IMG/VR virus record: IMGVR_UViG_3300031454_000005 | Location: 1 to 55,193 of that record | Source of the DNA: a virus | Reading direction: 5' to 3' (one strand) | DNA: 55,193 bases | Shown: piece after piece, positions 9,566 through 52,718 of the stretch | How positions within the stretch are numbered: the first letter of the stretch is position 1 | Layout of the letters: each line of letters begins with the position of its first letter | Program-made: the position numbers and the translations under genes | Notes under the pieces: generated by a model | Told to the model about the DNA's origin: nothing | What the model saw: the letters and a program-made list of their open reading frames with translations, nothing else | Databases searched by the model: none

Positions 9566-10236
9566 TAACCACGCTGCGACACCCATTGCTCTGGATGATC
9601 GGGAGCGTCCTGCTGGCGTTCGGCGGGTTGTACATCCTGACCGACTTCCAGACCGTTCACTGGCTCGACCCAGTACTGCTGATCGTGATCGTGGTCGCCT
9701 CGGTCGCCGCCGCGCTGTCGTTGCTAATCCAGACGAAGGACTGGACGGCCCTGAGCGCGGGCCTGCTGTCGTTCTTCTCGGGAAACGCAGTCCTGTGGGT
9801 TTACGCGCTGGTGGGGCCTCGCGATGAGACGGGCAGCCTGTACCCGGATGCCGTCGAGTTCCTGCCCGTCATTGCGCTGTTGGTAGTCGGGGCGATCTTC
9901 TTCGTCTACGGGATGATCCGGGGCGGCTGGGCCTCGTTCCGATTCCGGGCCGAGTCCGATCGGCAGGGCCGCGAGGACATCGCCCGCATCGGTCAGCAAC
10001 TGACCACGATCAGCCGGGAGGCAAGGGACGCGGTGCGGGAGGCGGCGACCGAAGCCGTGGAGGCACGGAGCGCGGCGCGGGATGCGGCGACCGAAGCCGT
10101 GGAGGCATCGGACGAGCGGACGAGGATCATGCTGGAAAACGCGGCCAAGCAGGAGACGCTACTGGAAGTGAAGAACATCGTCCGCCCTAAAGAGCCCGAT
10201 GACCACGACCACGAAGACGACGGGTCGCTGACCTGA
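9562..10236 (+). CDS. Polytopic membrane protein (about 4 TM) with a repeat-containing helical tail
   Basis: ATGA overlap with the upstream gene. Four hydrophobic stretches in the first 120 aa. The C-terminus carries a repeated REAATEAVEA / RDAATEAVEA unit, from a 24-nt perfect repeat at about 10040 and 10085. Confidence 0.65.
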   Translation: MITTLRHPLLWMIGSVLLAFGGLYILTDFQTVHWLDPVLLIVIVVASVAAALSLLIQTKDWTALSAGLLSFFSGNAVLWVYALVGPRDETGSLYPDAVEFLPVIALLVVGAIFFVYGMIRGGWASFRFRAESDRQGREDIARIGQQLTTISREARDAVREAATEAVEARSAARDAATEAVEASDERTRIMLENAAKQETLLEVKNIVRPKEPDDHDHEDDGSLT

Positions 10237-35479: not shown

Positions 35480-35836
35480 GTGGGACGTACCATCCGTACC
35501 CTGAAAAACCGGACGCTCATGCTCAACGCCCTCGCCGATGGTGAGAGCGTCATTACTGCGTGCGAGATGGCGGGTATCGGCAAGCGGTCCTACTACGATT
35601 GGCGCTGCGACGACGCCGAGTTCAACGCCGACGCCGACGCCGCCATGGAGCAGGGCGCCGACCGCCTCGAAGCCGAGGCGATGCGCCGGGCACTGGACGG
35701 TAGCGACGTCCTGCTGATGTTCCTCATCAAGGGCAAGCGACCGCACATCTACCGTGACAACGTCAAGCATGAGCACTCCGGGTCGGTCACGTTCTCGGAT
35801 CTCCACGCGCTCGCCGGTCAGGCGGCGCCGGAGTGA
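35480..35836 (+). CDS. terS: Terminase small subunit (HTH type)
   Basis: ACEMAGIGKRSYYDWRCDDAEFNADADAAMEQGADRLEAEAMRRALDGSDVLLMFLIKGKRP is the typical actinophage TerS pattern. Immediately upstream of TerL. Confidence 0.75.
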   Translation: MGRTIRTLKNRTLMLNALADGESVITACEMAGIGKRSYYDWRCDDAEFNADADAAMEQGADRLEAEAMRRALDGSDVLLMFLIKGKRPHIYRDNVKHEHSGSVTFSDLHALAGQAAPE

Positions 35837-37565: not shown

Positions 37566-37768
37566 ACTGGTATGTGACGGTGATTGTGTTCCAGTTGGTC
37601 TGTCTTGTCGGCATAGTCGCGGCCCTGCCCCTTATATGGGCGATCGAGACGGGACGCCTTGACGCTCATCTGGACGACATCCGTGGCGGCCGGATCGTCG
37701 GCACCTGTGTGGGTCTGCTGGTTATTGCAACAGCCTGCGGGCTTGTCGTAGGGATGGTGGCGTCATGA
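37562..37768 (+). CDS. Two-TM small membrane protein
   Basis: VTVIVFQLVCLVGIVAALPLIW and IVGTCVGLLVIATACGLVVGMV; 68 aa. Confidence 0.5.
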   Translation: MNWYVTVIVFQLVCLVGIVAALPLIWAIETGRLDAHLDDIRGGRIVGTCVGLLVIATACGLVVGMVAS

Positions 37769-39255
37769 CCCTTCCTGCCGATCCCCTAAAATGGGCCGTC
37801 ACCGCCTTCCGTGACGGCCGGAACCTCAACTACGAGACCTACGCGAAGTACCTTGCCGGCAAGCAATCACTGGAGTTCGCGACGGATCGGTTCCGCCTGG
37901 CCTTCGGCGACCTCGTCGAGGCCCTGACCTACAACCGGTGCGAAGCGGTGGTCGACGCCCACGCAGACCGCCTGCAGGTCGCTGGCTTCGCCGCCGACGA
38001 CGGCGTCCTCGCTCAGGCGGCCCAGGCCCTCTGGGACGCCAACCGGATGGACGTCCGGGAGGGGCATGTCGCGACCGACGCCTTTGCCCTCGGCGACAGC
38101 TATGTTGCCGTTGCGATGCACCCTGAACCGGGGCGAGGCGTCCAGTTCTGGACCCTGGACCCGCGTAACGTCCGGGTCCATTACAGCCTGGAAGCGCCGG
38201 GAGAGATCGACCTGGCCGCTCAGACGTGGCAGACCGAGGACGGACACTCCCGGTTGACCCTCTACTTCGCCGACCACATCGAGAAGTACGTCAGCCGGAC
38301 CAGGACGCCGTCGGGCTTGCCTGTCAGCGCCGTCGCGTTCGAGCGCTACCAGCCTGCGGACGAGCCGTGGCCGGTCGTGTTCCCTCCCGGCAGACCGGTC
38401 CCGGTGTTCGCATTCGCCAACAACGGGCGGACCGATTCCTACGGCGCAAGCGAACTGCGCAACGTCATCCCGATGCAGGACGGCGTCAACAAGACGCTCG
38501 CTGACATGGTGGTCGCGATGGAGTTCGCGGCTTTCCCGCAGCGCGTTCTGCTTGGTGTGGACCCACCGACCCCCGAGGAGCAGGCGATCTTCGACCGGTT
38601 CATGACGGGCGTCGACCGCATCCTGACCCTGAGCGATGCCAACTCCAAGATCGGGGAGTTCAGCGCCGTCAACATCGCCCAGTACCTCGCCATCGTCGAG
38701 TTCTGGGACAAGGCCATCTCCCGAGTCACCAAGGTACCGACGCACTACCTCGGCATGACGGGGGACTTCCCATCCGGCCGCGCCCTGCGGATCGCGGAGG
38801 GGCCGTTCATCGCCAAGCTCGAGGATCGCCAGCGGGCGTTCGGCGCGGTCTGGTCCGACATCATGACCTACGCCCTGATCCTGGACGGCAAGAGCATCGA
38901 GCCGGGCGACCTGCGGGTGAACTGGAAGAGCGCGGCACCACTGAGCTCGGAGGATCAACTGGACCTGGCGTTGGGCAAGAAGACGCTTGGGATGCCGTTC
39001 CCCCAGATCCTGCGCGAGCTGGGGTACGAGCCGACGCAGTTGGCAACGATCCTCGAAGACGGGCAGACGGACATCGAGGCGGAGCTTGCGGCGGTCCGGG
39101 AGGCGAAAGCGAAGGGCCTCCAGCTGATCGAGACGCTGCGGTCGCCATGGGCGCTGCGTGAGGCCGGGGTGCCGGACGACGCGGTGAAGGACATCGAGGA
39201 GCTCAACGGCATGGACGCGATGGACGGCCTCGGCGACGTTGGGGGAGGGCCATAG
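37765..39255 (+). CDS. Portal protein (SPP1 gp6-like)
   Basis: 496 aa. Position is after TerL. The pattern FAAFPQRVLLGV ... VPTHYLGMTGDFPSGRALRIAEGPFIAKLEDRQ is typical of SPP1-type portals. Confidence 0.8.
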   Translation: MTLPADPLKWAVTAFRDGRNLNYETYAKYLAGKQSLEFATDRFRLAFGDLVEALTYNRCEAVVDAHADRLQVAGFAADDGVLAQAAQALWDANRMDVREGHVATDAFALGDSYVAVAMHPEPGRGVQFWTLDPRNVRVHYSLEAPGEIDLAAQTWQTEDGHSRLTLYFADHIEKYVSRTRTPSGLPVSAVAFERYQPADEPWPVVFPPGRPVPVFAFANNGRTDSYGASELRNVIPMQDGVNKTLADMVVAMEFAAFPQRVLLGVDPPTPEEQAIFDRFMTGVDRILTLSDANSKIGEFSAVNIAQYLAIVEFWDKAISRVTKVPTHYLGMTGDFPSGRALRIAEGPFIAKLEDRQRAFGAVWSDIMTYALILDGKSIEPGDLRVNWKSAAPLSSEDQLDLALGKKTLGMPFPQILRELGYEPTQLATILEDGQTDIEAELAAVREAKAKGLQLIETLRSPWALREAGVPDDAVKDIEELNGMDAMDGLGDVGGGP

Positions 39256-39316: not shown

Positions 39317-39763
39317 ATGGCTTTCACCTCGACCGCGGCCGGGAACCTCGGCGCCCACCTCGCCAACGCCCGGGTCAACTGGCTGACCGGCCCCATCAAG
39401 ATCATGCTCTGCGCCTCGACGTTCGTCCCCAACAAGGACACGACGATCTACAAGAGCGACGTGACAGGCGAGCTTGCTACCGGAGCGGGCTACACGCTCC
39501 GGGGACTGGCGCTGACTGCCAAGACCGCCGCCTATGACGCCGCGACCGACACGACGCCCCTGTCCGCCGCCAATGCCGTCTGGACGACCGCAGCGGGGCA
39601 GACGCTTACGTATCGTGTGTACGTGATCTACAGCGACACCGGCACCGACACGACCTCGCCGGTGATCGGCTGGGGCGTGGAGAGCGCCGACCAGACGGCG
39701 TCCAATGGTGGTACCGCGACCATCACGTTCGACGCGACCGGCATCGTCCGGCTGGCCACCTAA
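39317..39763 (+). CDS. Hypothetical beta-rich virion-associated protein
   Basis: CAGGAG RBS; 148 aa, rich in Thr/Ala/Gly. First ORF of the insertion between the portal and the MuF-like gene. Confidence 0.55.
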   Translation: MAFTSTAAGNLGAHLANARVNWLTGPIKIMLCASTFVPNKDTTIYKSDVTGELATGAGYTLRGLALTAKTAAYDAATDTTPLSAANAVWTTAAGQTLTYRVYVIYSDTGTDTTSPVIGWGVESADQTASNGGTATITFDATGIVRLAT

Positions 39764-39766
39764 TCC

Positions 39767-40486
39767 GTGCCCGGTCCGTACACACGGCACACCACCGGAC
39801 AGGTGATCGACGCGATCGACATCAACGAGCTGCAGGATGGGCTAGAAGGCGCGGCCCCAAGCATCGTGACGACCGCTGCCTTCGATGACTTCGTGAGCAA
39901 TACCGGGAACGGTGCGCTCGGCTGGAACAACACCTTCGGCGTGTCATCCAACTCCGTCGTCCATTACACCGGGCATCCGGGCGTCCTCACGCGGTCCAGC
40001 GGTGCGACGGCGAGCAACTATGCCGCGCACATGCTCCCCAACGGCTTCGATCCGGTCGAGTTCTTCGACGTGACATTCATCTTCGCAATGGGAACCGCGT
40101 CGGCGGGCGCGGACGTCCTGTTTCGGGTCGGCATCGGATCACACAGCGCATTGACATCCAATCCGTCTACCGCCGGAGCGTGGCTGGAAAAATTGGCGGC
40201 GGATACCGCCTGGTGGCGCGTCACCCGGAACGCGAGTGTCCAGACTCGGGAGACAACAGGCATCAACGTCGTCGCCCTCGACTGGATCAAACTGCGCATA
40301 CGCCGGATCTCGTCCACGAGTATCGGGTTCACGATGAACAACGCCTCCGAGGTGGCCATGACGACCAACCTACCTTCGGCCGGGCAACTGGTCCAGCCAT
40401 TCTTCGCAATCCTCGGAACGACGACGACCGCACGGACGGTCCTCGTCGACCTGTTCACGATGACCATTACCGGCCTCGCACGATAG
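39767..40486 (+). CDS. Fibre-like protein (tail/head fibre N-terminal motif plus jelly-roll-like C-terminal domain)
   Basis: The N-terminal TGQVIDAIDINELQDGLE matches the motif common at the N-termini of prophage fibre/hyaluronidase-like proteins. 239 aa. Confidence 0.5.
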   Translation: MPGPYTRHTTGQVIDAIDINELQDGLEGAAPSIVTTAAFDDFVSNTGNGALGWNNTFGVSSNSVVHYTGHPGVLTRSSGATASNYAAHMLPNGFDPVEFFDVTFIFAMGTASAGADVLFRVGIGSHSALTSNPSTAGAWLEKLAADTAWWRVTRNASVQTRETTGINVVALDWIKLRIRRISSTSIGFTMNNASEVAMTTNLPSAGQLVQPFFAILGTTTTARTVLVDLFTMTITGLAR

Positions 40487-40496
40487 GAGCGGTTCC

Positions 40497-40736
40497 GTGG
40501 ACATTCTCGTTTCCATTAGCGGCGCGCAATCAAGCGGCGGCGGCCGTCTTTCCGCCGGCCTCCTCATCGCTACCTCGACTGGATACCAGCTTCAGGCCGA
40601 CATCATCGTGGACTTCGCTTCCTCGACGACGCAGATGAACGCCAACGTCCGGTCACAGGCTCTGGCGATCCTGAACGGCAGCGGGATCATCGCAACGACC
40701 AGCGACCGGATGCGTGTCGCAGGCGGCTTCGTCTAA
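40497..40736 (+). CDS. Hypothetical 79-aa protein
   Basis: GTG start with tight spacing to both neighbours. Confidence 0.4.
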   Translation: MDILVSISGAQSSGGGRLSAGLLIATSTGYQLQADIIVDFASSTTQMNANVRSQALAILNGSGIIATTSDRMRVAGGFV

Positions 40737-40739
40737 CCA

Positions 40740-42284
40740 GTGGCCATCTTCGGGACGAGCGTCTTCGGGACCGGCAAATACGGCACCGAGGCGACGGGCA
40801 CCAACGCCTCGGCGTCCGCGCCTGCCGTGATCCTGACCGCGTCCGCCCCGATCCCGGTCTCGACCGCCATCCGGCTCGCAACGGCCACCTCGCCCGCGTC
40901 CACCCTGATCGCCTCGGCTCCTGCGCCGGTTGGCACGTCCGTCCAGCAGGCGTCCGCCGTCTCTGCGGTCTCAACCGTCACCGCATCTACACCCGCTCCC
41001 GTCAGTCTGATCGGTCAGGTTGCGTCGTCGTCGGCCAATGCGGCGACGGTCACGACCAGCGCACCCACGTCGGTTAGTTCCACCGTCCGGGTCGCATCCG
41101 CCGCCACCGGCGCAGCCACGGCGACCGCGTCGGCCCCGGCCCCCGTGAGTACGGCGGCTCAGGTCGCGTCATCCCCGGCTACTGCCTCAACCGTTACGGC
41201 ATCCGCTCCGGCCTCAACCTCCTCAACGGTTCGGGTCGCACCGTCGGCGGCGACCGCCGCAACCCTGACCGCGACCGCGCCAGCACCCGTCAGCACCGCG
41301 GTCCAGCAGGCGTCCTCCCTGTCTGCGGCTGCGACCGTGACGACCACGGCCCCGGCTCCGGCGTCAACGGCGGTCCGGATGGCGTCCGGCACAGCCCCGG
41401 CCAGTACCGTCGCCGTCACCGCGCCAACCCCGGTCTCGTCGGTCGTTCTCGTCGCCAGTTCAGCGGCTCCGGCCTCGGCTGTCACGATCACGGCCCCCGC
41501 AGCGACCAGCACGACGATCCGTTCCGCGGCGGGGAACATCGTTCCATCGAACGTCACAATCACCGCCCCGCCCCCCACGGCGAGCTCAACGGCGGGGGCG
41601 GGATCGGTCAGCTCGACAGCCCCGGCAACCGCCGTAGCGATCACCGTCCCCGCGGCGAGTGCATCCTCGGTCCGGGTGGCGACGTCGGCGGTGCCGATCT
41701 CCACGCTGACGGCGACCGCTCCGGCTCCGACCAGTTCGATCGGGACCAACGCCGGGTCTGCGTCGTCCGCTGCACCGGCCGTCACGCTGGTGGCCGTGAT
41801 CCCGGCTCCGGTGGCGACCTCCATTCGGCAGGCGACGACGACCGCTGGGGTATCGCTGGTCACGATCACGGTACCGGCACCGGAAGGCGCGGCGCTGTCC
41901 GTCTCGACCTCGGCCGCGGCGCTCGCACCGGCGGTGACGACGTGGCTGGTCATCCCGGCGCCGGTAGCGGTTTCGACATCGATCGCCAGCGCCTCGGCAG
42001 GCGTGGTGGTCCTGGTGATCGCGGCACCGCCTGCTACTTCGATCGCGACATCGCAGGCGGCCGTCGGGATCGGTGATGCCTTCCGGGCAATCGTCCCCGG
42101 CCCCGTCGCGTTCCGAACCGCCGTGCCGTCCCTCGGTGCGTTCCGGGTGCCGGTGGCCGTCCTCACGGCGACACGGGCGACCGTCGTGCCGGTGGGTGCG
42201 GTCCGTGATCCGGTCCCCGGCCCTGGCGCGACGAGACAGATCATCCCGGCCGGTGTGGCCGTGACCCGTGAGCGAAAGGACTAG
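40740..42284 (+). CDS. Ala/Ser/Thr/Pro/Val tandem-repeat protein (about 17 x 24 aa, then about 7 x 10 aa)
   Basis: GTG at 40740 lies 3 nt after the upstream stop, and the stop lies 5 nt before the next ATG. N-terminus FGTSVFGTGKYG. Repeat unit approximately ..A.TVT.TAPAPVSTAV..AS. The C-terminus has GAFR/VAFR-type decamers. Both antisense frames are also open (repeat artefact). Confidence 0.6.
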   Translation: MAIFGTSVFGTGKYGTEATGTNASASAPAVILTASAPIPVSTAIRLATATSPASTLIASAPAPVGTSVQQASAVSAVSTVTASTPAPVSLIGQVASSSANAATVTTSAPTSVSSTVRVASAATGAATATASAPAPVSTAAQVASSPATASTVTASAPASTSSTVRVAPSAATAATLTATAPAPVSTAVQQASSLSAAATVTTTAPAPASTAVRMASGTAPASTVAVTAPTPVSSVVLVASSAAPASAVTITAPAATSTTIRSAAGNIVPSNVTITAPPPTASSTAGAGSVSSTAPATAVAITVPAASASSVRVATSAVPISTLTATAPAPTSSIGTNAGSASSAAPAVTLVAVIPAPVATSIRQATTTAGVSLVTITVPAPEGAALSVSTSAAALAPAVTTWLVIPAPVAVSTSIASASAGVVVLVIAAPPATSIATSQAAVGIGDAFRAIVPGPVAFRTAVPSLGAFRVPVAVLTATRATVVPVGAVRDPVPGPGATRQIIPAGVAVTRERKD

Positions 42285-42289
42285 GCACG

Positions 42290-42727
42290 ATGGCACTCAT
42301 CAAGGACATCATCATCCGGGGTGACGACGAGGAATGGACGATCGCCCTGACCGACTCGGCCGGTGCTCCGCTCCCGTTGCGGACCCTTCAGATCCAGATC
42401 GTCGTCAAGCCGCCCGGCACCGACCTCGCCAGTGACAGCGACGCCCTCTATCGCCATACCGCGACCTTTGCGGCGGACGGCACGCTGACCGGCGCGGTCG
42501 GTATCCGGCTCGGCGGGACGGTGGACAGCGGCATCGTCACCGAGTTCCTGACGCCCACGGACATTGTGGCGTTGGCGACGGCCTATGACGCAATGGCCGG
42601 CAAGGACCCACGCATTCTGGCGCTCTGGGACGTGCAGGTACGGGACGCCTTCGGTCGGCACAAGACGGTCCTGTCGGGCCAGCTCTCGATGGTGCGCGAC
42701 ATCGGGCGCGTCCGCGACATCGCGTAA
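42290..42727 (+). CDS. Hypothetical Ig/BppU_N-like beta-sandwich protein
   Basis: IIIRGDDEEWTIALTDSAGAPLPLRTLQIQIVVKPPG recalls the N-terminal domains of baseplate upper proteins. 145 aa. Confidence 0.45.
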   Translation: MALIKDIIIRGDDEEWTIALTDSAGAPLPLRTLQIQIVVKPPGTDLASDSDALYRHTATFAADGTLTGAVGIRLGGTVDSGIVTEFLTPTDIVALATAYDAMAGKDPRILALWDVQVRDAFGRHKTVLSGQLSMVRDIGRVRDIA

Positions 42728-42746
42728 CCGGAGGAGGAGGCGAACG

Positions 42747-42953
42747 ATGATGCACGTCTTGCGCGAACCGAATTCCTATCCCATCGTGCTGATCGTGCCC
42801 CATGACGGCGCGCCGCCGACCCGCGTGGACACCGGCCTGATGGCGACCTGGTTCAAGGGCGAACTGATCGTCATGGTGTCGCCCGACGAGCTGGACGGCC
42901 TGATCGAGACACTGACGGCGGCGGTGAGCACGGCAAGAACGGAGGATGACTGA
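42747..42953 (+). CDS. Hypothetical 68-aa protein
   Basis: GGAGGAGGAGG lies 6 nt upstream of the ATG. Confidence 0.5.
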   Translation: MMHVLREPNSYPIVLIVPHDGAPPTRVDTGLMATWFKGELIVMVSPDELDGLIETLTAAVSTARTEDD

Positions 42954-43147
42954 TGAGCCTGCTGGACTGGTTGTTCCCGCCTCGGACCAGCCTCGCAGAC
43001 TTGCATCGTCACTGGGAGCGTGAAGACGAACTTGCCAATGAACGACTGCGCATCTGGTTGGAACATCAGCGGGAGACAGAGCGCCTGAATAACGAGCAAT
43101 GGCAGACGGTGACTACGCGGATGCCGAAGGACGGAGACGCAACATGA
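42953..43147 (+). CDS. Hypothetical 64-aa protein
   Basis: TGATG overlap with the upstream gene. Charged and helical. Confidence 0.45.
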   Translation: MSLLDWLFPPRTSLADLHRHWEREDELANERLRIWLEHQRETERLNNEQWQTVTTRMPKDGDAT

Positions 43148-43231
43148 GCGACTGTAGTAACCGTTACCGTGTTGGTCTGTATCACCATCGTCCTGTGCGT
43201 CGGGATGCTGGCAAGTCGGAAGGGGTAGCGA

Positions 43232-43438
43232 ATGGATACGGACCGGGTCAGGCTCGACGCCGACGAATGGAACGAGGACATCGACCGATTGGTCAGCGAC
43301 CACTATGGGGATCAAGGGCATGACCGCGACTGGCTTCGCGCGTTCGGCGAGGGTCTAATTCGGGCCGCAAACCGTCCGGACAGCACCGATGACGAGAACG
43401 ATCACGCGGAACGGGTAGGCGATGCCATCCGACCGTGA
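43232..43438 (+). CDS. Hypothetical acidic 68-aa protein
   Basis: GGAAGGGG RBS. Confidence 0.45.
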   Translation: MDTDRVRLDADEWNEDIDRLVSDHYGDQGHDRDWLRAFGEGLIRAANRPDSTDDENDHAERVGDAIRP

Positions 43439-44357
43439 CCGCAGCATCACCCCGCGTCTCGACCGGATGCTGGCCGATCTGGGCCGGGAGGTCGAACATA
43501 TCGTGCTCGACGTTGCCGGGTCACCCCTGACACCGATGACGAGCGCGCTGCGCGGCCGAGCGATGCCGAGGATCACGCGGGCGCTGTCGTCGGTCTACCC
43601 CGTCCGGCGCGGGGCGACGTCACCGCTGGAGACGCTGATCCTGGACGAGGCGACGGCGACGTGGGACCGGGTGCTCGTCGCCGAGGCGGACCGGTTGCGG
43701 GGCCAACTGTCCGATCGTCTCCTCGCGGCGATCGACGCCGGCGACGACGGCCTCGCCGAACTGCTGCGGATGAGCCGTCTGGCGCCGGACCGCCGCCTAG
43801 CGATCGCCCGGTCGCTGGACGATACGCGGACATGGGTCGATCCCAACGGCTACCGGCTCAGCGACCGGGTCTGGAACGCGCGACAGGGTGTCCGCCGGGC
43901 CATCGACCAGGAGCTGCGGCTCGGCATCGTGCGCGGCACCAGTCCGGTCGATGTCGCGGCCCGCCTGGAACGGTTCCTGACACCCGAGGGGGCGCGAGCG
44001 CGGAGCCGGGTCGTGCTGCGACCGGGCGACGAGCCGGGCACCGGCTCCTACAGCGCCCGCCGACTGGCCCGGACGGAGCTGACGGGGGCAAGAGCACAGG
44101 CGACGGTCGAGGCGGCGAGCCGGATCCCGACGACGCGGGGAATGAAATGGAACCTGTCGAATCGGCACCATCCGGGCGGGGACGAGTGCGACGAACTCGC
44201 CGGGGCAGATCGGTACGGATTGGGCTCAGGAGTCTACCCGTTGACGGCGCTTCCGAGGTTGCCACAACATCCGATGTGCCTTTGCTTCTGGACGACGAGC
44301 TTCCCAAGCCGGGAAGAGAGCGACCGGATCATTCGGGCGCGGTACGGGTTGGGTTGA
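43422..44357 (+). CDS. Head morphogenesis protein (SPP1 gp7 / Mu F-like)
   Basis: ARRLARTELTGARAQATVEAA ... WNLSNRHHPGGDECDELAG ... LPQHPMCLCF matches the Phage_Mu_F C-terminal pattern. Confidence 0.75.
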   Translation: MPSDRDRSITPRLDRMLADLGREVEHIVLDVAGSPLTPMTSALRGRAMPRITRALSSVYPVRRGATSPLETLILDEATATWDRVLVAEADRLRGQLSDRLLAAIDAGDDGLAELLRMSRLAPDRRLAIARSLDDTRTWVDPNGYRLSDRVWNARQGVRRAIDQELRLGIVRGTSPVDVAARLERFLTPEGARARSRVVLRPGDEPGTGSYSARRLARTELTGARAQATVEAASRIPTTRGMKWNLSNRHHPGGDECDELAGADRYGLGSGVYPLTALPRLPQHPMCLCFWTTSFPSREESDRIIRARYGLG

Positions 44358-44370: not shown

Positions 44371-44514
44371 ATGGAGCCACGACCGGGACCGCAAGCCGAA
44401 ACACCGGGTGACGACGTTCGCTGGCTAGCTATGTTGATCCGGCAAGGGCTGTTGCTCATTGTCGCTGGAATTGAGCGCCGGTACGGGATTGGCCGGCAAC
44501 AGGAGGTGAAGTGA
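44371..44514 (+). CDS. 47-aa protein with one hydrophobic helix
   Basis: GAGGAG lies 9 nt upstream of the ATG. The stop overlaps the start of the next gene (GTGATG region). WLAMLIRQGLLLIVAGI. Confidence 0.4.
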   Translation: MEPRPGPQAETPGDDVRWLAMLIRQGLLLIVAGIERRYGIGRQQEVK

Positions 44515-45605
44515 TGGCTATGAGCTTGTTGGATCAGTACCTAGAGCGGCCCGAAATCAAGCGGCTACTTCTTTCGCTACGAGCCGAGGACATCGATGCC
44601 ATAAAGAATCATGGACTCCGGTCGCTAGACGGACGCATCTTAGCCGAAATGGAACGGTCTGGCGCCATCGGGTTGCCGGGCATCGTCCCGTTCCAAATCG
44701 ACAACGTCGCGGATTATGCACGCCAAATCTCGCGCGAGTCCAAAAGCGATAAGGGCCGCTACGATCGTTTCGTTTCGACGGTGCCATGTTTCACCCCGCC
44801 ATTCCCGTCGACTTGGTTTGAGTGGAATGATCCATCGGCGGGGCCCGATGAGGCGACAGTAAATGCCGTCCATGTTGTGGCGGAGGACTTATGGGAGTCC
44901 CTAGAGCCGGATGAAGCAACGGCCGTCGGGGAGCGGTATTACCTGAGCAAGCTACCGCCGGGTTGGTCCCACCTTGAAGGCATCTCGCTTGGGCCGGTGC
45001 GGTGGGTCCTGGACGTTTTCTCCCATTTCCGAGTGCGCGGTCGCGTCATTGACGCCTATGAGTGTCTGCTCGTTCTTGTAAGCCCGTCAGGTGAACTATC
45101 AACGGTCTACCAGAATGGCTCGCCTGCTGGAGCGGCGACACTGACCTATAGCAGCGACCCAGAACGTTGGAGAGTCCTCACTTTAGAGCAGCAGAATATC
45201 CGGGCCCGCACGCTCAAAGAACACTTCGCTACAGCCCTTATTGCAATCGGCTTCACTCATTGTAAAAACGTCAGCCAGGTCGAGTCGCCGCCGACCCCGC
45301 CGGACGTTGCGGCGAAGCGACGCAAAAAACTGGGACGCCCCGAGACCCGGTTTCGTCTCTTGATGATCGACCCGATGCGCGAAACCTTTGAGCGTAGCGA
45401 GGGGTCAGGCGAGCCAGGGCCGGGTCGGTCGTTCCATATCTGCCGCGGCTACTTCGCCGCCTACAGCGAGGATAAGCCGCTCTTCGGCAAACTGACAGGG
45501 AGGTTCTGGAGGCAAGCGCACACTCGCGGTCATATCGTCAACGGCGTCGTCGCCAAGCATTACCAGGTCAAGCATGGCGAACTATCGCAACTGACGGCGC
45601 CATGA
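44514..45605 (+). CDS. Hypothetical 363-aa protein, low-G+C accessory gene in the head module
   Basis: AGGAGG lies 7 nt upstream of the ATG. Visibly lower G+C than the neighbours. Followed by a canonical U-tract terminator. No motif recognised. Confidence 0.65.
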   Translation: MAMSLLDQYLERPEIKRLLLSLRAEDIDAIKNHGLRSLDGRILAEMERSGAIGLPGIVPFQIDNVADYARQISRESKSDKGRYDRFVSTVPCFTPPFPSTWFEWNDPSAGPDEATVNAVHVVAEDLWESLEPDEATAVGERYYLSKLPPGWSHLEGISLGPVRWVLDVFSHFRVRGRVIDAYECLLVLVSPSGELSTVYQNGSPAGAATLTYSSDPERWRVLTLEQQNIRARTLKEHFATALIAIGFTHCKNVSQVESPPTPPDVAAKRRKKLGRPETRFRLLMIDPMRETFERSEGSGEPGPGRSFHICRGYFAAYSEDKPLFGKLTGRFWRQAHTRGHIVNGVVAKHYQVKHGELSQLTAP

Positions 45606-45652
45606 TATAGTTCCAATCAATCGCATAAAGGTCAGTCCCCATCATGGGGCCC

Positions 45653-45720
45653 GCCCGCTCTCGCTGGAACCGTCGCGCAAATCGCGCCTGTTCCTGACCG
45701 GAGCGGGCTTTTTGTGTTTT
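45653..45720 (+). terminator. Rho-independent terminator with a long U-tract
   Basis: GCCCGCTC ... (nested GGAAC/GTTCC and GCGC/GCGC pairs) ... GAGCGGGC followed by TTTTTGTGTTTT. Confidence 0.75.
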
Positions 45721-45727
45721 CCGACAG

Positions 45728-45792
45728 GGCGTGATGCCGGACGGAACTACTGGCGAGGCGTGATGCCAGCCAAAAGGATGAGGCGTGATGCC
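45728..45792 (+). repeat. Three direct copies of GGCGTGATGCC upstream of and overlapping the scaffold gene start
   Basis: Copies at 45728-45738, 45757-45767 and 45782-45792. Spacing is 29 and 25 nt. The third copy contains the GTG/ATG start. Confidence 0.8.
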
Positions 45793-46489
45793 AGATCCCT
45801 TCTACGGACGGTTGTTCTTCAGCCCTTCTGACGGTGGCGGTGGCGCGGGCGGAGAATCCGCTGGCGGCGACGGTGCCGGGAACGAGACGAGCGGCGACGC
45901 CGACGCGTCCGCCGCAGGCGACCAGCCGGACGGCGCCACCGACCGTAAGGCAGACGAGGCCAGGGACGAGAAGCCGGGCCAGGGTGACATCGACCGGCTA
46001 ACCAAGGCCCTTGATGCCGAACGGCGACAGACCGCTGCCGTTCAGAAGTTCGCGAAGGATCGGGGCATCACGGTCGCCAAGGCGATCGAGTTGTTCCAGC
46101 AGGCCGAGGACGCCAACAAGACGGAGCTCGAACGAGCGACGACCGAACGCGATCGAGAGCGGGAACGAGCCGACACCAATGCGCAGAAGCTTCGCACCGC
46201 CAATGCCCGGTCGGCCGTGACCGACGCCGCGACCAAGGCCAACGTCGTCAGCGTCAACGCCGTCTACGCGCTGGTTCGAGACGACCTGGAGTTCGACGAC
46301 GACGGTGAGCCGACCAACGTCGACGTCGTCATCGCGGCCGCCAGGAAGGCCGAACCGGCCATGTTCCGGGCCGCGCCGGGACGGACTGACGCCAACCAGC
46401 GCGACGCGGAGGCCATCGAACTGGCCCCCGGTGTGAGCCGGATGGCCCACGCCTACGCCACCGAGAGCAAGACGGCCCGCCGGCGCTAG
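45785..46489 (+). CDS. Capsid scaffolding protein
   Basis: Gly/Asp-rich N-terminus followed by long charged helices (DRLTKALDAERRQTAAVQKF..., ELERATTERDRERERADTNAQKLRTANA). Immediately upstream of the major capsid gene. The start may be 45785 or 45788. Confidence 0.7.
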   Translation: MMPDPFYGRLFFSPSDGGGGAGGESAGGDGAGNETSGDADASAAGDQPDGATDRKADEARDEKPGQGDIDRLTKALDAERRQTAAVQKFAKDRGITVAKAIELFQQAEDANKTELERATTERDRERERADTNAQKLRTANARSAVTDAATKANVVSVNAVYALVRDDLEFDDDGEPTNVDVVIAAARKAEPAMFRAAPGRTDANQRDAEAIELAPGVSRMAHAYATESKTARRR

Positions 46490-46538: not shown

Positions 46539-47486
46539 ATGGCCGTTACGCTTGCCCAGGCCGCGCTCCTGAGCCAGAACAACCTGCAGCGGGGCGTCAT
46601 CGAGACGTTCATCATCGAGTCGGTCGTCCTCGACCGGATTCCGCTCCTCGAGATCGAGGGCAACGCCTACGCCTACAACATGGAGGCGACGCTGCCGGGC
46701 GTGGAGTTCCGCGCCGTCAACTCGGCCTACGCCGAGAGCACCGGCACGGTCAACCAGCGCACCGAGACGCTGGTGATCCTGGGTGGCGATGCCGATGTCG
46801 ATACGTTCATCGCCCAGACGCGCGGCGACCTCAACGACCAGCGGGCCATCCATACCCGCATGAAGGTCAAGGCCGCGACCTACAAGTATCAGGACGCCTT
46901 CGTCAACGGTGACGTCGCCGTCGACGCCAACGGGTTCGACGGCCTCAAGAAGCGCCTGACGGGCAGCCAGGTCATCGCGGCCGCCGCAAACGGCCTGCCG
47001 GTGATCGGGGCAAGTGACAACGATCGCTACGCCTTCCTCGACCAGCTCGACGCCCTGATCTCGCTGGTCGGCGCGCCCGGGCCGGACGCCCTGTACATGA
47101 ACCGGTCGATCCGGCAGAAGCTCTTCAGCTCCGCCCGGCGACTGACGATCTATGACCAGACCGTCGACACCTTCGGCCGCACCATCGCGCAGTACAACGG
47201 CATCCCCATCCTCGACATCGGGACCCGACCCGACGGGACGCTCATCATCCCGCAGACCGAGACCCAGGGCACCGCGGTCAACGCCAGCTCCATCTATGCC
47301 GTCAAGTTCGGCCAGAGCGAGGCCGACGGCGGCATGACGGGACTGACCAACGGCGGTATCCAGGTCAAGGACCTCGGCGAGATCGACGCCAAGCCGGTCT
47401 ATCGGACCCGGCTGGAATTCTTCTGTGGGCTCGCTGCCTTCAGCGGCACCGCTGCGGCCCGACTCTCGGGTGTCCTGAATGCCTAG
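46539..47486 (+). CDS. Major capsid protein
   Basis: GGGAGA RBS; 315 aa. Position is after the scaffold gene. MAVTLAQAALLSQNNLQRGVIETFI... is typical of actinophage MCP N-termini. Confidence 0.75.
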   Translation: MAVTLAQAALLSQNNLQRGVIETFIIESVVLDRIPLLEIEGNAYAYNMEATLPGVEFRAVNSAYAESTGTVNQRTETLVILGGDADVDTFIAQTRGDLNDQRAIHTRMKVKAATYKYQDAFVNGDVAVDANGFDGLKKRLTGSQVIAAAANGLPVIGASDNDRYAFLDQLDALISLVGAPGPDALYMNRSIRQKLFSSARRLTIYDQTVDTFGRTIAQYNGIPILDIGTRPDGTLIIPQTETQGTAVNASSIYAVKFGQSEADGGMTGLTNGGIQVKDLGEIDAKPVYRTRLEFFCGLAAFSGTAAARLSGVLNA

Positions 47487-47756: not shown

Positions 47757-48051
47757 CGACGACGGCGTGACCACCCGGTCCGACCGCATGGATCTCGGCG
47801 TCCCGATGCTGCCCGGCGATCCCGCGGAGCCGGTCGGACCCGAGGACGCCCTCGGTGCCGGGCCGACGCGCGGCGACTACCGCGAGCGGCTCGGTGACAG
47901 TCACTATCACCCACACACCGTCGTGACCGTCGCGGACGCGAAGCCGGGCGAGCCGACCCAGGTCGCGGTCGCACAGCGCCCGCTTGCCGACGAGATCGGC
48001 GAGGTGCCCGGTCGTAAAGGCGGAGTCAACTCGGCTGCCTCGTTTTCCTGA
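47665..48051 (+). CDS. Hypothetical head-associated protein
   Basis: AAGGAGA RBS; 128 aa. Confidence 0.55.
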   Translation: MAVNDKTPVKSSDQTDVSVASVAQNDKLSHSDDGVTTRSDRMDLGVPMLPGDPAEPVGPEDALGAGPTRGDYRERLGDSHYHPHTVVTVADAKPGEPTQVAVAQRPLADEIGEVPGRKGGVNSAASFS

Positions 48052-48066
48052 GCGAAGGGTCAGCAC

Positions 48067-48312
48067 ATGAAGGGCCTCCGGATCGTCAATCGCGGCTCGA
48101 ACCCAGAAGACGGGTTCAACGGGAAGTACCTCGACGCATACGACCTGGAAACCGGGGACAAGATCACCAACCTGGACTCGATCGAGATGCGAATCTCGCG
48201 AACCGGTCGTGTCGGGGTATGGATCACCGCCCATGAGCCCGATCTGGAAGGCGTCGTCATGGGCTACCAGGTCGTTTACGAGGGGCCGGTGTTCGTTGGG
48301 CGGGATGCCTGA
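48067..48312 (+). CDS. Hypothetical 81-aa protein
   Basis: GAAGGG RBS. Confidence 0.5.
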   Translation: MKGLRIVNRGSNPEDGFNGKYLDAYDLETGDKITNLDSIEMRISRTGRVGVWITAHEPDLEGVVMGYQVVYEGPVFVGRDA

Positions 48313-48339
48313 TCGTCGTGACGGAAGGGAGTGCCACGG

Positions 48340-48795
48340 ATGGCAACGCGAGATGATCTGGTCGGGTACTTCGCGGTGATTCTGGACGACGTGCTGGCGA
48401 CCGCCGGCGTGCCGGCGACGGACGCGCCCGAAGGGCTGGGCCTGCCGCTCGACGCCGCCGACCGGGCCATGGCGCTGGTCACGATCCCGGAGACCGACGA
48501 GGCGGCCACGGAGGCGGCCTACACGGCGCTGGCTCGCTATCACATCCTCCTGCGGGTCCGGGACAAGGTCGCGCCACGGTTCAAGGTCGCGGTCGGCGGC
48601 GACTCCTACGCGCTACCCGACTCACTGGCCGGGATCAACCAGCTTCTTGCCGACGCCTATCACGCCGCCCTGTTCCTGGCGGGACCGGTCGCCGTGGCCG
48701 GTGGGGCCGGCGTCGTCGCACGGGGGCGGAGGATCGGGGTGATCGCCCTCGGGGGATCCGCCGCGGTCCTCGGTGGCGCGGGGAGTATTCGATGA
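48340..48795 (+). CDS. Head-tail connector/adaptor-like protein
   Basis: ATG lies 8 nt after GGAAGGGAG. Assigned by position between the capsid and neck genes. The track start 48331 (GTG) is also possible. Confidence 0.45.
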   Translation: MATRDDLVGYFAVILDDVLATAGVPATDAPEGLGLPLDAADRAMALVTIPETDEAATEAAYTALARYHILLRVRDKVAPRFKVAVGGDSYALPDSLAGINQLLADAYHAALFLAGPVAVAGGAGVVARGRRIGVIALGGSAAVLGGAGSIR

Positions 48796-49175
48796 GCGCA
48801 TCGGTGCCATTCCTTTCACCCGGCCTCGTATCCCGGATCCAGGGGCTCGCACGCCAGGGATTCGCCACCCAACTGGCACTGGCCGATCCGCCGGTCATGG
48901 TGCAGGTCTACCGGGGGACGCCGCCGGTCAAGGTCGGCCCCCCGGTCGAGGTCCAGGTCATCCCGGCCAACCGGCAGAGTCGCGATGGCGGTGGCCCGGG
49001 CGCGCTGGACGTCTCGCTGAGCGGCGGGGAGCTCCGGGCCTGGAGCCCGTGGGACGTCCAGCATGGCGATCTCGTCCGGATCGGGCGGGCGACGGCGGTG
49101 ATCCGGGACACCCCGCCGGTTCGCAACGGGATCCAGTCGGCCAGCTATGAGCTCAGCGATGGAGGAGGAAGCTAA
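48792..49175 (+). CDS. Head closure / head-tail adaptor-like protein
   Basis: ATGA overlap with the upstream gene; 127 aa. Assigned by position in the connector module. Confidence 0.45.
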   Translation: MSASVPFLSPGLVSRIQGLARQGFATQLALADPPVMVQVYRGTPPVKVGPPVEVQVIPANRQSRDGGGPGALDVSLSGGELRAWSPWDVQHGDLVRIGRATAVIRDTPPVRNGIQSASYELSDGGGS

Positions 49176-49543
49176 TGGCGGGCGGCATCCGGATCCAGAC
49201 CACCTCCAACACCATCAGGGCGGCATGCGACGACTACGGCAATCGCATCCACGGCGCGCTTGGCGCGCTCTGCATGGAGGAGGCGCAGCGCGGTCAGGAC
49301 GACATGCGGACCGGTCGCCGCTGGACGGACCGGACCGGCCACGCCCGCGACAGCCTGACGGGCTCGTACGAGCGCGAGGGTGATACCCACGTCATTTCGC
49401 TTGCCACAGACAACACGGACTACGGCCTGATCCTGGAGCTGGCCCACGCCGGCCGGTTTCAAATAATCCGGCCGACTGCCGACCGGCTCGCGCCGATCGT
49501 GATTCAACGCGCGGCGTCCCTGATCGGAGGATCGGCTCGATGA
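49175..49543 (+). CDS. HK97 gp10-family neck/tail-completion protein
   Basis: RWTDRTGHARDSLTG ... YGLILELAH matches the gp10-family signature (w.drTGnLr.S). Confidence 0.6.
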   Translation: MAGGIRIQTTSNTIRAACDDYGNRIHGALGALCMEEAQRGQDDMRTGRRWTDRTGHARDSLTGSYEREGDTHVISLATDNTDYGLILELAHAGRFQIIRPTADRLAPIVIQRAASLIGGSAR

Positions 49544-50031
49544 TCCTCTTCCAGCAGGCGGTGATCGCCACCCTCCAGGCCGACACCGAGCTGATGAGCC
49601 TCGTTTCGAGTATCTGGAACCGGGAGCTGCGGCGGGACGGGGCGGGGAACACGGCGGCGGCGTGGGGACCGCTCGACCCCGCCGACCCGCTCAGCCCGGA
49701 GGTGCTACGGCCCACGCTGGTCGTCATGGACGCCGGGGAGTTCGGCACGGCGTTCCGGTTCGGCGCCGACGCGAAGGTCATGGTGTTTGCCTACGTCCCG
49801 GCCAGCGACGCCGGCCGGACGCTGATCGCCCGGATCGAGTCCCGTATCCGGGCGGTCCTCGCCGGCGCCCACATCGGCGTCGCGGCGGGTGCTGGCGAAA
49901 CTCGGTTCGGCGAGGTCCGGATCGAACCGCGCTCACCGCTGCTGGACGAGCCGGCCTACGGCGGGACGATGTTCACCAGCTGGCGGATGACCCTCAGAAC
50001 GGCCGCGCTATCGGGTGTGGCCGAGTGGTAA
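49540..50031 (+). CDS. Tail terminator-like protein (DUF3168-like)
   Basis: The N-terminal LFQQAVIATLQADTELMSLV pattern, and the position before the major tail gene. Confidence 0.5.
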   Translation: MILFQQAVIATLQADTELMSLVSSIWNRELRRDGAGNTAAAWGPLDPADPLSPEVLRPTLVVMDAGEFGTAFRFGADAKVMVFAYVPASDAGRTLIARIESRIRAVLAGAHIGVAAGAGETRFGEVRIEPRSPLLDEPAYGGTMFTSWRMTLRTAALSGVAEW

Positions 50032-50063
50032 CCGGGGCGACGAGCCCCACAGGGAGAACCGAC

Positions 50064-50276
50064 ATGGCAGATCGCAAGAAGCTCACGGACAAGCAGGCCA
50101 CCGACACCATCGCGGCGTATCAGCGCGGCGAGGCGCTCCCGGAGGGGACGATCATCGACTTCACCGAGCCGCCCTACGTCTTCCATTCCGGGAACGTCAA
50201 GACGGTTCCGGTGACGATCGAGACCACGATCGATGACGCGTCGCCACCGGTCGTCGCCGTCAAGGACCGGAAGTAG
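50064..50276 (+). CDS. Hypothetical 70-aa protein
   Basis: GGGAGAACCGAC RBS. In frame with track ORF 49662..50276. Confidence 0.45.
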   Translation: MADRKKLTDKQATDTIAAYQRGEALPEGTIIDFTEPPYVFHSGNVKTVPVTIETTIDDASPPVVAVKDRK

Positions 50277-50278
50277 TC

Positions 50279-50830
50279 GTGCGCCGGGTCGCCTGGATCG
50301 GCAGCCGAATCAGCGATTACCTCGACCAGCCGGACCCGGCCGACCGCTGGGGCCGGACCCGGCGCACCCTGCTCTATGCCGACGCTTACTCGCGCACGGC
50401 CGCCCAGCGGGTGCGGCGGGAGGCGCTGTTCGCCCAGCACTTCCGGCCGATCTGGGGGGTGACGGTCCGCGAGTTCGGCCCGGACGACCTGCCGGGCCTG
50501 CGGAGCCGCTACCGGTGGGGAGTTCGGGGGACGGGAGCGGACGGTGACGCCTACGGGCCGGAGCCGTTCGTCACCGAGATGGACGAACAGGACGCGACCG
50601 CGCTGATGCTCTCCCGATTCGGGCACGAGTTCGCCTACGCCGACGCCGACCCGATGACGACGGGGCAGGAACCCCGCCAAGACCAGCCCGGAGACCCTGT
50701 GAACCAGGGCCGGGGACCGGCGGCGACCGGGCTGGTCCTGGCGCGGCTGTTGTCCCCGACCGCAGCGATGGCCCACTCGGGCCGAACGCTGACGCCGGCG
50801 GAGATGCAGCGCGTGACCCGTCCCCGGTAA
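50279..50830 (+). CDS. Hypothetical protein
   Basis: GTG start 2 nt after the upstream stop; 183 aa. No motif recognised. Confidence 0.4.
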   Translation: MRRVAWIGSRISDYLDQPDPADRWGRTRRTLLYADAYSRTAAQRVRREALFAQHFRPIWGVTVREFGPDDLPGLRSRYRWGVRGTGADGDAYGPEPFVTEMDEQDATALMLSRFGHEFAYADADPMTTGQEPRQDQPGDPVNQGRGPAATGLVLARLLSPTAAMAHSGRTLTPAEMQRVTRPR

Positions 50831-50916
50831 GCGTCTCGAGCGGGACGACCCGGGCGGCCCGGGGGTCGCGAACACCACCACAGGCCCCCTGATTCGGGGG
50901 CGGGAGGACAGCGGAC

Positions 50917-51474
50917 ATGGCAGGACGGATTGGACTCGGGGCCAGGGACATGGCCATCGGCGTCAAGGACCCCACGGCGGGAACCTTCGGCGCAATGATC
51001 GACGCGCCGGGACTCGCGGGCTTCTCGATCGACTATGAGGGCGACGTCGAGGAGCTCTGGGGCGACGGCATCCTCCAGGCATCGGTCGCCAAGAGCGTCG
51101 GTGCGTCGGGCTCGTTCGAGCTCGTCGTCCAGGACCTTGCGGTCAAGGCGGCCCTCACCGGCGGCACGGTCGTCGTCGCGGGGACCGGCGCGACCGCCGT
51201 GACGACCCTCTGGGTTCCGTCGACGCCGAAAATGCCGCTGGCCCAACTCGTCGGCATGGCGCGCGGCGTCGGCACGGACGGCGGAACGCTGCTCGGCCGC
51301 GTCTACCAGGGGCGCGTCACCAGCGGTGGCGGCTTTGAGCTGACCGACGGCTACGCGACCAGTTCCTACGATTACACCGCCCTCGACATGGGCGGGGCCC
51401 TGTTCGCCATTGAGCAGCATGCGGCCAGCCTGACGGCAATCCCGTCCACCGCGGTGAGCACCCTGCCGGTCTAG
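50917..51474 (+). CDS. Major tail protein
   Basis: GGGAGGA RBS; 185 aa, beta-rich. Followed by a strong hairpin and then the chaperone pair and TMP. Confidence 0.65.
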   Translation: MAGRIGLGARDMAIGVKDPTAGTFGAMIDAPGLAGFSIDYEGDVEELWGDGILQASVAKSVGASGSFELVVQDLAVKAALTGGTVVVAGTGATAVTTLWVPSTPKMPLAQLVGMARGVGTDGGTLLGRVYQGRVTSGGGFELTDGYATSSYDYTALDMGGALFAIEQHAASLTAIPSTAVSTLPV

Positions 51475-51500
51475 CGATCGACTCACGGACTGACCTAATC

Positions 51501-51527
51501 GGGAGCGGCGGGGCCGACGCCGCTCCC
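51501..51527 (+). terminator. Hairpin (attenuator/terminator) after the major tail gene
   Basis: GGGAGCGGCG gggccga CGCCGCTCCC, a perfect 10-bp stem. Confidence 0.6.
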
Positions 51528-51583
51528 GCCTCCTCTCCATCCGGCCCAGTGGCGCCTGATTCGGCGTCAAGGAGCACCCGAGC

Positions 51584-52270
51584 ATGACCAGCGACGACAC
51601 CCACGACCGCTTCGATCCCATGACCGGCCAGCCGATTGACCGTCCCACCGATGCCACCCATCGGGTCGCGCCGACGGACATCGCCGCTCCCGGCCAGGTC
51701 CACGCCGACTACGACCGGCAGCGCACCGCCCCGGAGCCCCGCGACATCATCCTCGACCTGCCGCAGGCCCGTGCCATGACGGCCGCTCAGCGTGCGGCCG
51801 CGAAACGCCGGGCCCGCGAAGCGAGCATCATCACGATCGATCTTCCGGACCTTGGCACCGTCAAGGCGATGCCCAAGAGCTTCGACCGGGTGCTGATGGA
51901 CGCCAGTCTCACTGGACTCATCTCGACCGCGTCGCAGCGGTCATTCTATGAAGCATCCAAGGCCCTGGAAGGCATGGGTCCCGACGAGCAGATGCGCCTC
52001 GGTGAGGACGCCGATGAGGTCTTCGCCAAGCTCGGGATCGGCCAGAGCCAGGATTTTTACGGCGCCCTCTCCCAGACGTACCCGATCGCGTGCCTTGTCG
52101 ATCCGCGCTGTGTCGCCACCGAGGCGGATATCACCGACCCGGAACATGAGATCTGTCTGAACGATCTCACCCACGAGGACCGGGCTGCAATCTTCAACGC
52201 CTGTGGAAAGGAGCGAATGGAGCGAGCGGTCGCCCTGGCCCCGTTTCCTGACCCGTCGACACCTGTATAA
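51584..52270 (+). CDS. Tail assembly chaperone (gpG-like)
   Basis: AAGGAG RBS; 228 aa. Position is between the major tail protein and the TMP. An overlapping downstream ORF lies in another frame. Confidence 0.65.
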   Translation: MTSDDTHDRFDPMTGQPIDRPTDATHRVAPTDIAAPGQVHADYDRQRTAPEPRDIILDLPQARAMTAAQRAAAKRRAREASIITIDLPDLGTVKAMPKSFDRVLMDASLTGLISTASQRSFYEASKALEGMGPDEQMRLGEDADEVFAKLGIGQSQDFYGALSQTYPIACLVDPRCVATEADITDPEHEICLNDLTHEDRAAIFNACGKERMERAVALAPFPDPSTPV

Positions 52271-52598
52271 GCATCACCTGATGGGCGCGGCCTATGGGCA
52301 GCCACCATCGACCTGGGCGGACATCGGTGACCCTGATCTCGCCGATGAGTACGACGAAGCCGCCCATGATGTTGGCACCCAGATCGAGCGACTGCAGACG
52401 GCCACGAAGCTCGAACGGGCACCCAAGCCGGCGAAGAACGCGCCGCAGATGGTCCAGCGGCCGATGTACACGAATGAGCAGATCAACTGGGTGCTCGGCT
52501 TCGTCCTCGCGCACGAACCAGACGAGGACCAGATCGGCTCCGACGACCTCTATGACGCCCTGATGGCCGGGCTGGACGACCAGCCGCCACACGCTTGA
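51584..52598 (+). CDS. Tail assembly chaperone frameshift product (gpGT-like), shift near 52239-52250
   Basis: The downstream frame is open from 52161 to 52598 with no credible RBS or start. It is +1 (equivalently -2) relative to 51584..52270. Candidate slippery sites are GCC_CCG (C run 52239-52242) and UUU_C (52244-52247). Confidence 0.5.
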
Positions 52599-52718
52599 CC
52601 GACCTGACACCGTCAATTTCCCGGAGATTTGACACCGTCATCCGACCCGCTCCCCGGCCCAGGGACGCACGGACCGTGACCAAGACAACCGCCCGTGCTC
52701 CCCGGATCGGGAGCGACG

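Follow-up and report, generated by a model that had tools for sequence, protein, structure and literature searches.

Between the head morphogenesis and scaffold genes of a virus known from a sequence record of 55,193 nucleotides (IMGVR_UViG_3300031454_000005, the whole of which is called here the window) lie two overlapping open reading frames (ORFs), one for a micro-protein of 47 amino acids (p47; 44371..44514, plus strand) and one for a protein of 363 amino acids (p363; 44511..45605, plus strand), followed by a G+C-rich hairpin with a U-run. The question raised by this locus is which of these parts were inserted and which belong to the resident genome. An earlier note, made from the sequence alone, took both genes and the hairpin as an accessory cassette with its own terminator, of the kind that carries defence, anti-defence or host-modulating genes. 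Comparison with related phages leads us to draw the border elsewhere: p363 is probably the sole cargo gene in a recurrent slot, and p47 and the promoter/leader/terminator-like element are probably parts of the backbone before the scaffold and capsid genes.

The basic layout is as the note had described it, including translational coupling and strong ribosome binding sites. The ATG start of p47 has GAGGAG 8 nucleotides (nt) upstream, that of p363 has AGGAGG 6 nt upstream, and the p47 stop overlaps the p363 start in GTGATGG, p363 (363 or 364 amino acids, end at 45605) starting either with ATG at 44514 or with GTG at 44511. The lower G+C content relative to the flanking head genes was confirmed by computation: GC is 0.585 for p363 and 0.604 for p47, and 0.66-0.70 for the MuF-like, scaffold and major capsid protein (MCP) genes. 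At third codon positions (GC3) the values are 0.665 for p363 and 0.625 for p47, i.e. 0.63-0.67 against 0.83-0.91 for the three head genes. A segment of the size of p363 (1095 nt) placed over the gene ranks within the bottom 2.8% of the contig by GC, and comparably low GC is found elsewhere in the contig only at 17-19 kb and 19.5-21.3 kb.

For the comparison of the slot, 160 loci (numbered with the prefix L) were fetched by MCP similarity, at up to 81% identity and with some duplicated between two collections. A homologue of p363 is present in none of them. A search for closer relatives returned none above 81% MCP identity, and for this reason an isogenic empty site is unavailable. In typical cultured relatives the genes for portal, protease/MuF, scaffold and MCP are contiguous. 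L220 represents an empty site. There the end of MuF is followed by a homologue of p47 (79% identical) and then, across an intergenic stretch containing TATACT and a hairpin with U-run, by the scaffold and MCP genes. The slot is likewise empty in five relatives in which p47 directly adjoins the conserved element (L302, L305, L306, L422 and L433).

Other relatives carry different genes at the same place. In L015, the closest relative, the slot holds a gene of 174 amino acids with a Pfam-confirmed HNH_3 domain (GC 0.45-0.50), the order being p47 homologue, terminator, TATAAT box, HNH_3 gene, shared downstream sequence and scaffold gene; the downstream sequence, ATGATATA[C/G]T ... GGAGCGG..TTTTTGTGTTT, is the same as in the window. 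In L301 a 78 amino acid YccF-like gene, for a small membrane protein, occupies the slot, and L017 carries an HNH_3+AP2 gene in the analogous slot at its MuF/scaffold junction. The limits of the insertion in the window are the p47 stop on the left and an extended -10 motif on the right. Cargo at this p47/-10 boundary was found in three contigs, which are the window (p363), L015 (HNH) and L301 (YccF-like), and comparison of the window with L220, L302 and L306 shows precise presence or absence near conserved genes. The p47/-10 boundary is a recurrent insertion site, and the presence/absence polymorphism which the earlier note had proposed to look for does exist in related phages. Its description of the locus as accessory cargo holds for p363, which is foreign in composition and absent or replaced in relatives; it fails for p47, which is a conserved resident.

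Homologues of p47, retrieved with a profile of three p47 sequences, form 60 protein clusters of 35-83 amino acids with 58-85% identity and the invariant core DD..WLA..IR.GL..IV..IE..Y. The gene lies between MuF and scaffold in L015, L220, L301-L306, L422 and L433, with a MuF homologue identified upstream in L015, L220, L301 and L303, and in long contigs it is invariably found after MuF and immediately before scaffold. At least nine contigs carry p47 without p363. Among the copies compared (window 44371-44514, L220:321-476 and L015:3506-3667), that of L220 is better conserved with respect to the window than is MCP (79% against 60% identity). The TGA within the extended -10 motif serves as the p47 stop in L302 and L306 and as the p363 stop in the window. 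p47 is a backbone micro-protein and not cargo, and as a rule no other gene stands between it and the scaffold leader. Its sequence has the features of an amphipathic helix with charged residues, unlike those of a membrane helix, and searches of Pfam, NCBIfam, PADLOC and PDB sequences gave zero matches.

The element to the right of the slot begins with the extended -10 promoter-like motif TGATATAGT (45603..45611, plus strand), in which TGnTAnnnT is conserved at a fixed distance from the structured leader (45622..45720, plus strand). The leader is composed of GGUCAGU, the helix P1 (45637-45649), CCCGCC, the helix P2 (45653-45708) and the U-run TTTTTGTGTTTT (45709-45720), which directly follows the G+C-rich hairpin on its 3' side; P2 and the U-tract together have the form of an intrinsic terminator, that is a G+C-rich stem-loop and then a U-tract. 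A scan found 45653-45720 to be the sole plus strand terminator-like site in 38-55 kb, in agreement with the earlier statement that it is the only stem plus U-tract terminator of the late region. The scan alone proves little, since terminator-like sites on both strands were no more numerous than in shuffled sequence; the hairpin is judged real because it is conserved.

This element of about 115 nt could be aligned in the window and in ten further contigs (L015, L016, L301, L302, L303, L305, L306, L422, L433 and L435). Across contigs the order is extended -10, short A/T-rich stretch, GGCAGU, P1, UCCCGCC, P2, whose apex is often GCGCAAGCGC, and U-run, and TGnTAnnnT lies 16-22 nt 5' of the start of the RNA model in 10 of the 11. 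A loose DNA pattern gave mostly chance matches and was replaced by a tighter pattern, nhmmer and a covariance model. The model scores the window leader at 76 bits (E 6e-20), and its matches among 179 sources searched are confined to these 11 contigs. In a 10-sequence alignment the 20 predicted pairs are paired at 86%; shuffling the columns gives 74.5%, and none of 500 shuffles reaches the observed value. Covariation scores 0.376, and no more than 0.156 once the partners are slid. Compensatory changes occur at 11 pairs and both leader helices are backed by covariation. Upstream of the element p47 is present in 9 of the 11 contigs, and a scaffold-like gene is downstream in 10 of the 11; this p47-type protein of 45-55 amino acids is the only constantly linked gene. 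The element is kept in all ten other contigs in the absence of p363, and in L015 it is downstream of a different gene. The hairpin cannot be regarded as the own terminator of the inserted gene, since it is conserved, with covariation, upstream of scaffold whatever precedes it. In Rfam no match reached the gathering score in the whole window (best E 1.5 in 45550-45850), and literature searches for a scaffold-leader element returned nothing relevant.

Between the leader and the scaffold gene, GGCGTGATGCC occurs three times without mismatch at 45728..45792 on the plus strand (starts at 45728, 45757 and 45782, i.e. at intervals of 29 and 25 nt), and nowhere else in the window in exact form. All three look like a Shine-Dalgarno sequence followed by a GTG/ATG start, and the scaffold start codon is inside the third. 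The first copy opens a mini-ORF of nine codons which begins with MPD, as the scaffold protein does. Similar repeats are found at the same position in L306 (GGCGGGATGCC, two copies) and L220 (GCGTGATGC, two copies). The repeats may be a translational operator, a standby site or recombination scars.

Promoter-like motifs are rare in this part of the genome. On the plus strand between 35414 and 45603 neither a sigma-70-like nor a TGnTAnnnT motif was found, and hence none ahead of p47 or p363. The only sigma-70-like match in 38-55 kb is antisense within p363 (44742-44713, minus strand); the count of such matches does not exceed that in shuffled sequence, and this one is probably a chance match. 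TGnTAnnnT occurs four times on the plus strand of the 55 kb, at 45603, 35414, 15024 and 15670, the latter two near the integrase/lysogeny region. The copy at 35414, situated 419 nt upstream of the TerL start, is a candidate late promoter. Autonomous, moron-like expression of the pair is not indicated by this arrangement, in which no promoter-like motif precedes p47 or p363 and p363 is coupled to p47.

Three layers can be told apart in the region. p47 normally ends the portal-MuF transcription unit, its TGA in several relatives giving the TG of the extended -10. The resident element before scaffold and MCP consists of the extended -10, a structured leader of about 95 nt and the repeated ribosome-binding/start motif. 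p363 is inserted exactly between p47 and the promoter-like motif, with the start/stop overlap reproduced on the left and its own TGA inside the -10. Lacking its own promoter, p363 would be a late product that depends on read-through in the head operon and on translational coupling. The leader hairpin would halt transcripts begun at the local promoter unless some factor permits read-through, following the logic of lambda PR'-tR'; alternatively, the leader may yield a short RNA of about 95 nt.

As to the protein itself, the earlier note saw no recognisable motif in p363. This is correct for Pfam, NCBIfam, PADLOC and PDB sequences, in which p363 has zero matches, as have profiles of 15 and of 150 of its relatives; it does not extend to PHROGs, in which p363 matches the unannotated family phrog_20769 (E 6.3e-18), with strongly conserved motifs. 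A word-indexed search yielded only 15 relatives, and family size was taken from an exhaustive profile search, which gave no fewer than 8,733 clusters (clustering at 50% identity, E ≤ 1e-3), 3,666 of them reaching E ≤ 1e-30. Against the profile built from its family p363 scores 291 bits. All 150 diverse members examined match phrog_20769 and nothing else in that database, and none of the 150 carries a Pfam domain. Relative to phrog_20769, p363 has about 55 extra residues at its N-terminus.

The family motifs are DNVA.Y, PPF...W.E, HCKNV, IDPM and HICRGHF..Y..PLFGK..G.FW..H.RG...K.Y. p363 has the HCKNV, IDPM and HICRGHF-type motifs, the sole exception being HICRGYF (H313Y). Across the 150 diverse members N252, H308, R311, G312 and Y350 are invariant and C250, K251, E103, D349 and R338 nearly so. 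Since His, Asn, Arg, Lys, Tyr and Cys are frequent among the invariant residues, the most likely reading of p363 is that of an enzyme with nucleic acid as its substrate. Signatures of HNH, GIY-YIG, LAGLIDADG, PD-(D/E)XK and His-Cys-box nucleases were not detected by Pfam in p363 and its 150 relatives. A likeness of HCKN to the His-Cys box of I-PpoI was dropped, the remainder of the motif being absent. Confident AlphaFold models were obtained for p363 (predicted local distance difference test, pLDDT, 81.5; predicted template modelling score, pTM, 0.76) and for the compact member P0025 (pLDDT 85.3, pTM 0.80). Foldseek against BFVD returned only uncharacterised phage proteins, and matches to portal, CapZ and SecB were dismissed (probability <0.3, TM-score <0.2). 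Literature searches on phrog_20769 found nothing relevant.

Members of the family occur in metagenome-assembled and other genomes of many phyla, among them CPR (candidate phyla radiation) groups, Planctomycetota, Chloroflexota, Acidobacteriota, Actinomycetota, Nitrospirota and Elusimicrobiota, and in the cultured actinophages BritBrat (gp54), Omnicron (gp54), Mutaforma13 and phi16 (ORF44). Typically the gene lies between replication and terminase modules, where the early region ends, usually with a replication-type HTH_36 protein upstream and TerL 3-11 genes downstream; a position between TerS and TerL was also found. Family genes are often near DNA methylases or ParB-like genes, the methylase neighbours not being conserved, and neighbour clustering of 130 loci gave no conserved immediate neighbour, partner gene or system. 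Small ORFs of 57-76 amino acids overlapping the starts of family members were considered as a conserved partner and rejected, having no p47 match; the p47 tblastn search covered the loci fetched by then, including L001, L003 and L011, and those with the 57-76 amino acid ORFs gave no match.

The clearest case of presence or absence is that of Omnicron gp54, which is exactly missing from Rando14, with flanks of 91% identity and joints made of 4 nt start/stop overlaps, (A/G)TGA, on both sides. In coordinates (L007:3470-4354 for Omnicron, L298:1181-1184 for Rando14), the insertion is at the 4 nt overlap and the ATGA overlap is recreated on each side. This is a clean gene-sized indel at coupled gene boundaries. 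In some 28 further Kratiovirus phages homology ends where Omnicron gp54 begins, and BritBrat gp54 is missing from Spooky; in other relatives, Leroy and Holliday, GIY-YIG endonucleases adjoin the antirepressor genes. In each of the seven genomes checked, the family gene has a lower GC3 than its neighbours have on average. The family has the profile of a solitary, frequently transferred gene, and we infer that p363 is a horizontally mobile, solitary phage gene.

Our best single guess, held tentatively, is that p363 is a selfish, homing-type DNA enzyme in a slot which homing endonucleases occupy in relatives, a guess based on this shared slot, the precise presence or absence, the foreign composition and the catalytic-looking invariant residues. 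About equally likely, and held just as tentatively, is a beneficial accessory enzyme (anti-restriction, anti-defence or host takeover), normally an early gene, here relocated by mosaic recombination and spreading through its benefit to the phage, not by homing. The usual place of the family at the end of early operons, often close to methylase or ParB-like genes, its wide distribution across phyla, its sporadic presence or absence and its enzyme-like residue pattern speak in favour of this; on the other hand, a gene in a late operon and lacking a promoter would act too late against entry defences unless its product is packaged, p363 shows no similarity to known anti-defence proteins, and the methylases are not constant neighbours.

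That p47 and p363 form an autonomous two-gene moron with its own terminator, independently expressed for defence, anti-defence or host modulation, is very unlikely, even though GC3 is low in both ORFs, the two are translationally coupled, a hairpin with a T-run follows and p363 is absent from relatives. It is largely refuted by the empty-site and swapped-site relatives: p47 resides in the MuF-scaffold interval of at least nine contigs without p363, at 58-85% identity, the hairpin is present without p363 in ten, p363-family genes elsewhere have no conserved small partner, no promoter-like site is present upstream, and PADLOC at E ≤ 0.1 has no family for p47 or p363, which leaves the suggested defence function without a match. 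More improbable still is a regulator or DNA-metabolism factor, for example a Q-like protein, that would act on the adjacent leader and switch on the scaffold and capsid genes. p363 is directly upstream of a promoter-plus-terminator leader, as is lambda Q, and family members are commonly a few genes upstream of a terminase gene; however, the same leader is found in ten contigs without a p363 homologue, nhmmer with the leader alignment finds no leader in the 130 p363-family loci (where the covariance model was not run), and such a role is unlikely because leader and p363 occur independently of each other. We give least credit to a conserved virion or assembly component. The gene is inside the head module and would be expressed with the late genes, but this role is unlikely because p363 is absent from related head modules, that is from all 160 MCP-similar loci, and homologues in cultured phages are located in early/replication regions; on this point the accessory reading of the earlier note stands.

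Several points weigh against the reading of p363 as mobile, possibly selfish cargo beside a resident regulatory element. The fairly constant site of the family at the end of the early genes in most phages suits a useful resident and a selfish gene alike, and ordinary phage mosaicism also gives precise gene-boundary insertions. Foldseek against PDB, the structural check proposed in the earlier note, gave nothing at E ≤ 0.001 for either model (best E 0.018 and 0.065), neither the sequence searches nor the two models reveal a catalytic fold in p363, be it of a nuclease or another enzyme, and the protein lacks the separate DNA-binding module typical of free-standing homing endonucleases. The near-invariant H313 is replaced by Tyr, and the activity of p363 could therefore be altered. 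For the leader, promoter and terminator activity are predicted from sequence, and folding of the region as a whole gives a weak z-score (-0.9 to -1.6 in the window).

Among known systems, free-standing homing endonuclease genes of phages, such as the seg and mob genes of T4, share with p363 the solitary position between conserved essential genes, lower G+C content and precise presence or absence, and the p363 slot itself holds the HNH_3 gene in L015, as does the analogous slot in L017. Unlike them, p363 has no nuclease signature, no nuclease structural match and no promoter of its own. Morons, reportedly promoter-gene-terminator units in prophages as described by Hendrix and colleagues, resemble p363 as extra genes of deviant composition between conserved late genes, absent from relatives, but p363 is devoid of its own promoter and the flanking terminator belongs to the backbone. 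For the leader, HK022 put RNA is a cis-acting processive-antitermination RNA, and others of that kind exist. Like put, the leader of the window is a promoter-proximal pair of stem-loops conserved among related phages, although its second stem-loop has a terminator-like U-tract and no similarity to put was found. The closest analogy appears to be the lambda-type late leader PR'-tR', whose terminated product acts as a small RNA (sRNA) in Stx phages (PMC7547250). The leader of the window resembles it in that a candidate promoter, the extended -10 motif, is followed within about 100 nt by a strong terminator-like hairpin, directly upstream of highly expressed late genes. In distinction to PR'-tR', it lies inside the structural operon, ahead of scaffold and not of the late operon as a whole, neither a Q-like protein nor a qut site was identified, and sequence and structure are unrelated.

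The 55 kb contig (G+C 66%) resembles a temperate tailed phage and encodes an integrase (15856-17043, minus strand), an amidase, a helicase and a methylase. The helicase of 676 amino acids (ResIII, DEAD, Helicase_C; 25399-27429) bears an N-terminal HNH domain. In the late region are found TerL (35833-37281), the portal (37765-39255), the MuF-like head morphogenesis gene that forms the left edge of the slot (43422..44357, plus strand; phrog_1657, E 4e-39), the scaffold gene at its right edge (45785..46489, plus strand; Pfam Phage_scaffold, phrog_194/2303), both backbone, and MCP (46539-47486). The contig is permuted (1-10000 and 48000-55193), the late operon leaving at the 3' end and ORFs of tail size resuming at the 5' end, a pattern that fits a complete phage genome of about 55 kb whose assembly is circular or terminally redundant. 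Portal and MuF, adjacent to each other in cultured relatives such as Nesbitt, are separated by about 4 kb of extra genes (39317-43438): a phrog_644 protein (39317-39763), a protein with an SO2946-like C-terminal domain (39767-40486), a 514 amino acid Ala/Ser/Thr/Val repeat protein (40740-42284, GC 0.72) and two small ORFs of low GC3 (42953-43147 and 43232-43438). This stretch is a second accessory island of the head module. In L302, which also has p47 and the leader, a MuF-like gene is fused to a Zeta_toxin domain (L302:1231-2607), an architecture of MuF polymorphic toxins.

The insertion itself is ordinary phage mosaicism. The leader RNA element and its p47 partner appear to be undescribed so far. 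That both parts of a bolder proposition should hold, namely that p47 and the leader are an undescribed scaffold/capsid switch in soil (actinophage-like) viruses and that the HCKNV/HICRGHF family is a new homing endonuclease fold, we regard as unlikely. If it were true, the switch could work by antitermination or attenuation, or the element could be an sRNA gene, with p47 as trans-acting factor, and the phrog_20769 family would be a new class of selfish DNA-acting enzyme. The comparison corrects a plausible but wrong annotation, the cassette with its own terminator being replaced by one cargo gene beside conserved regulatory machinery. The head-cluster slot recurs with three unrelated genes, and such slots are good places for finding mobile or accessory phage genes. 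phrog_20769, a very large, cross-phylum family with invariant catalytic-looking residues and confident models but no known relative in structure, lends itself well to biochemistry and structure determination, and with a covariation-supported RNA element before the most highly expressed phage genes, the control of scaffold and capsid expression becomes directly testable.

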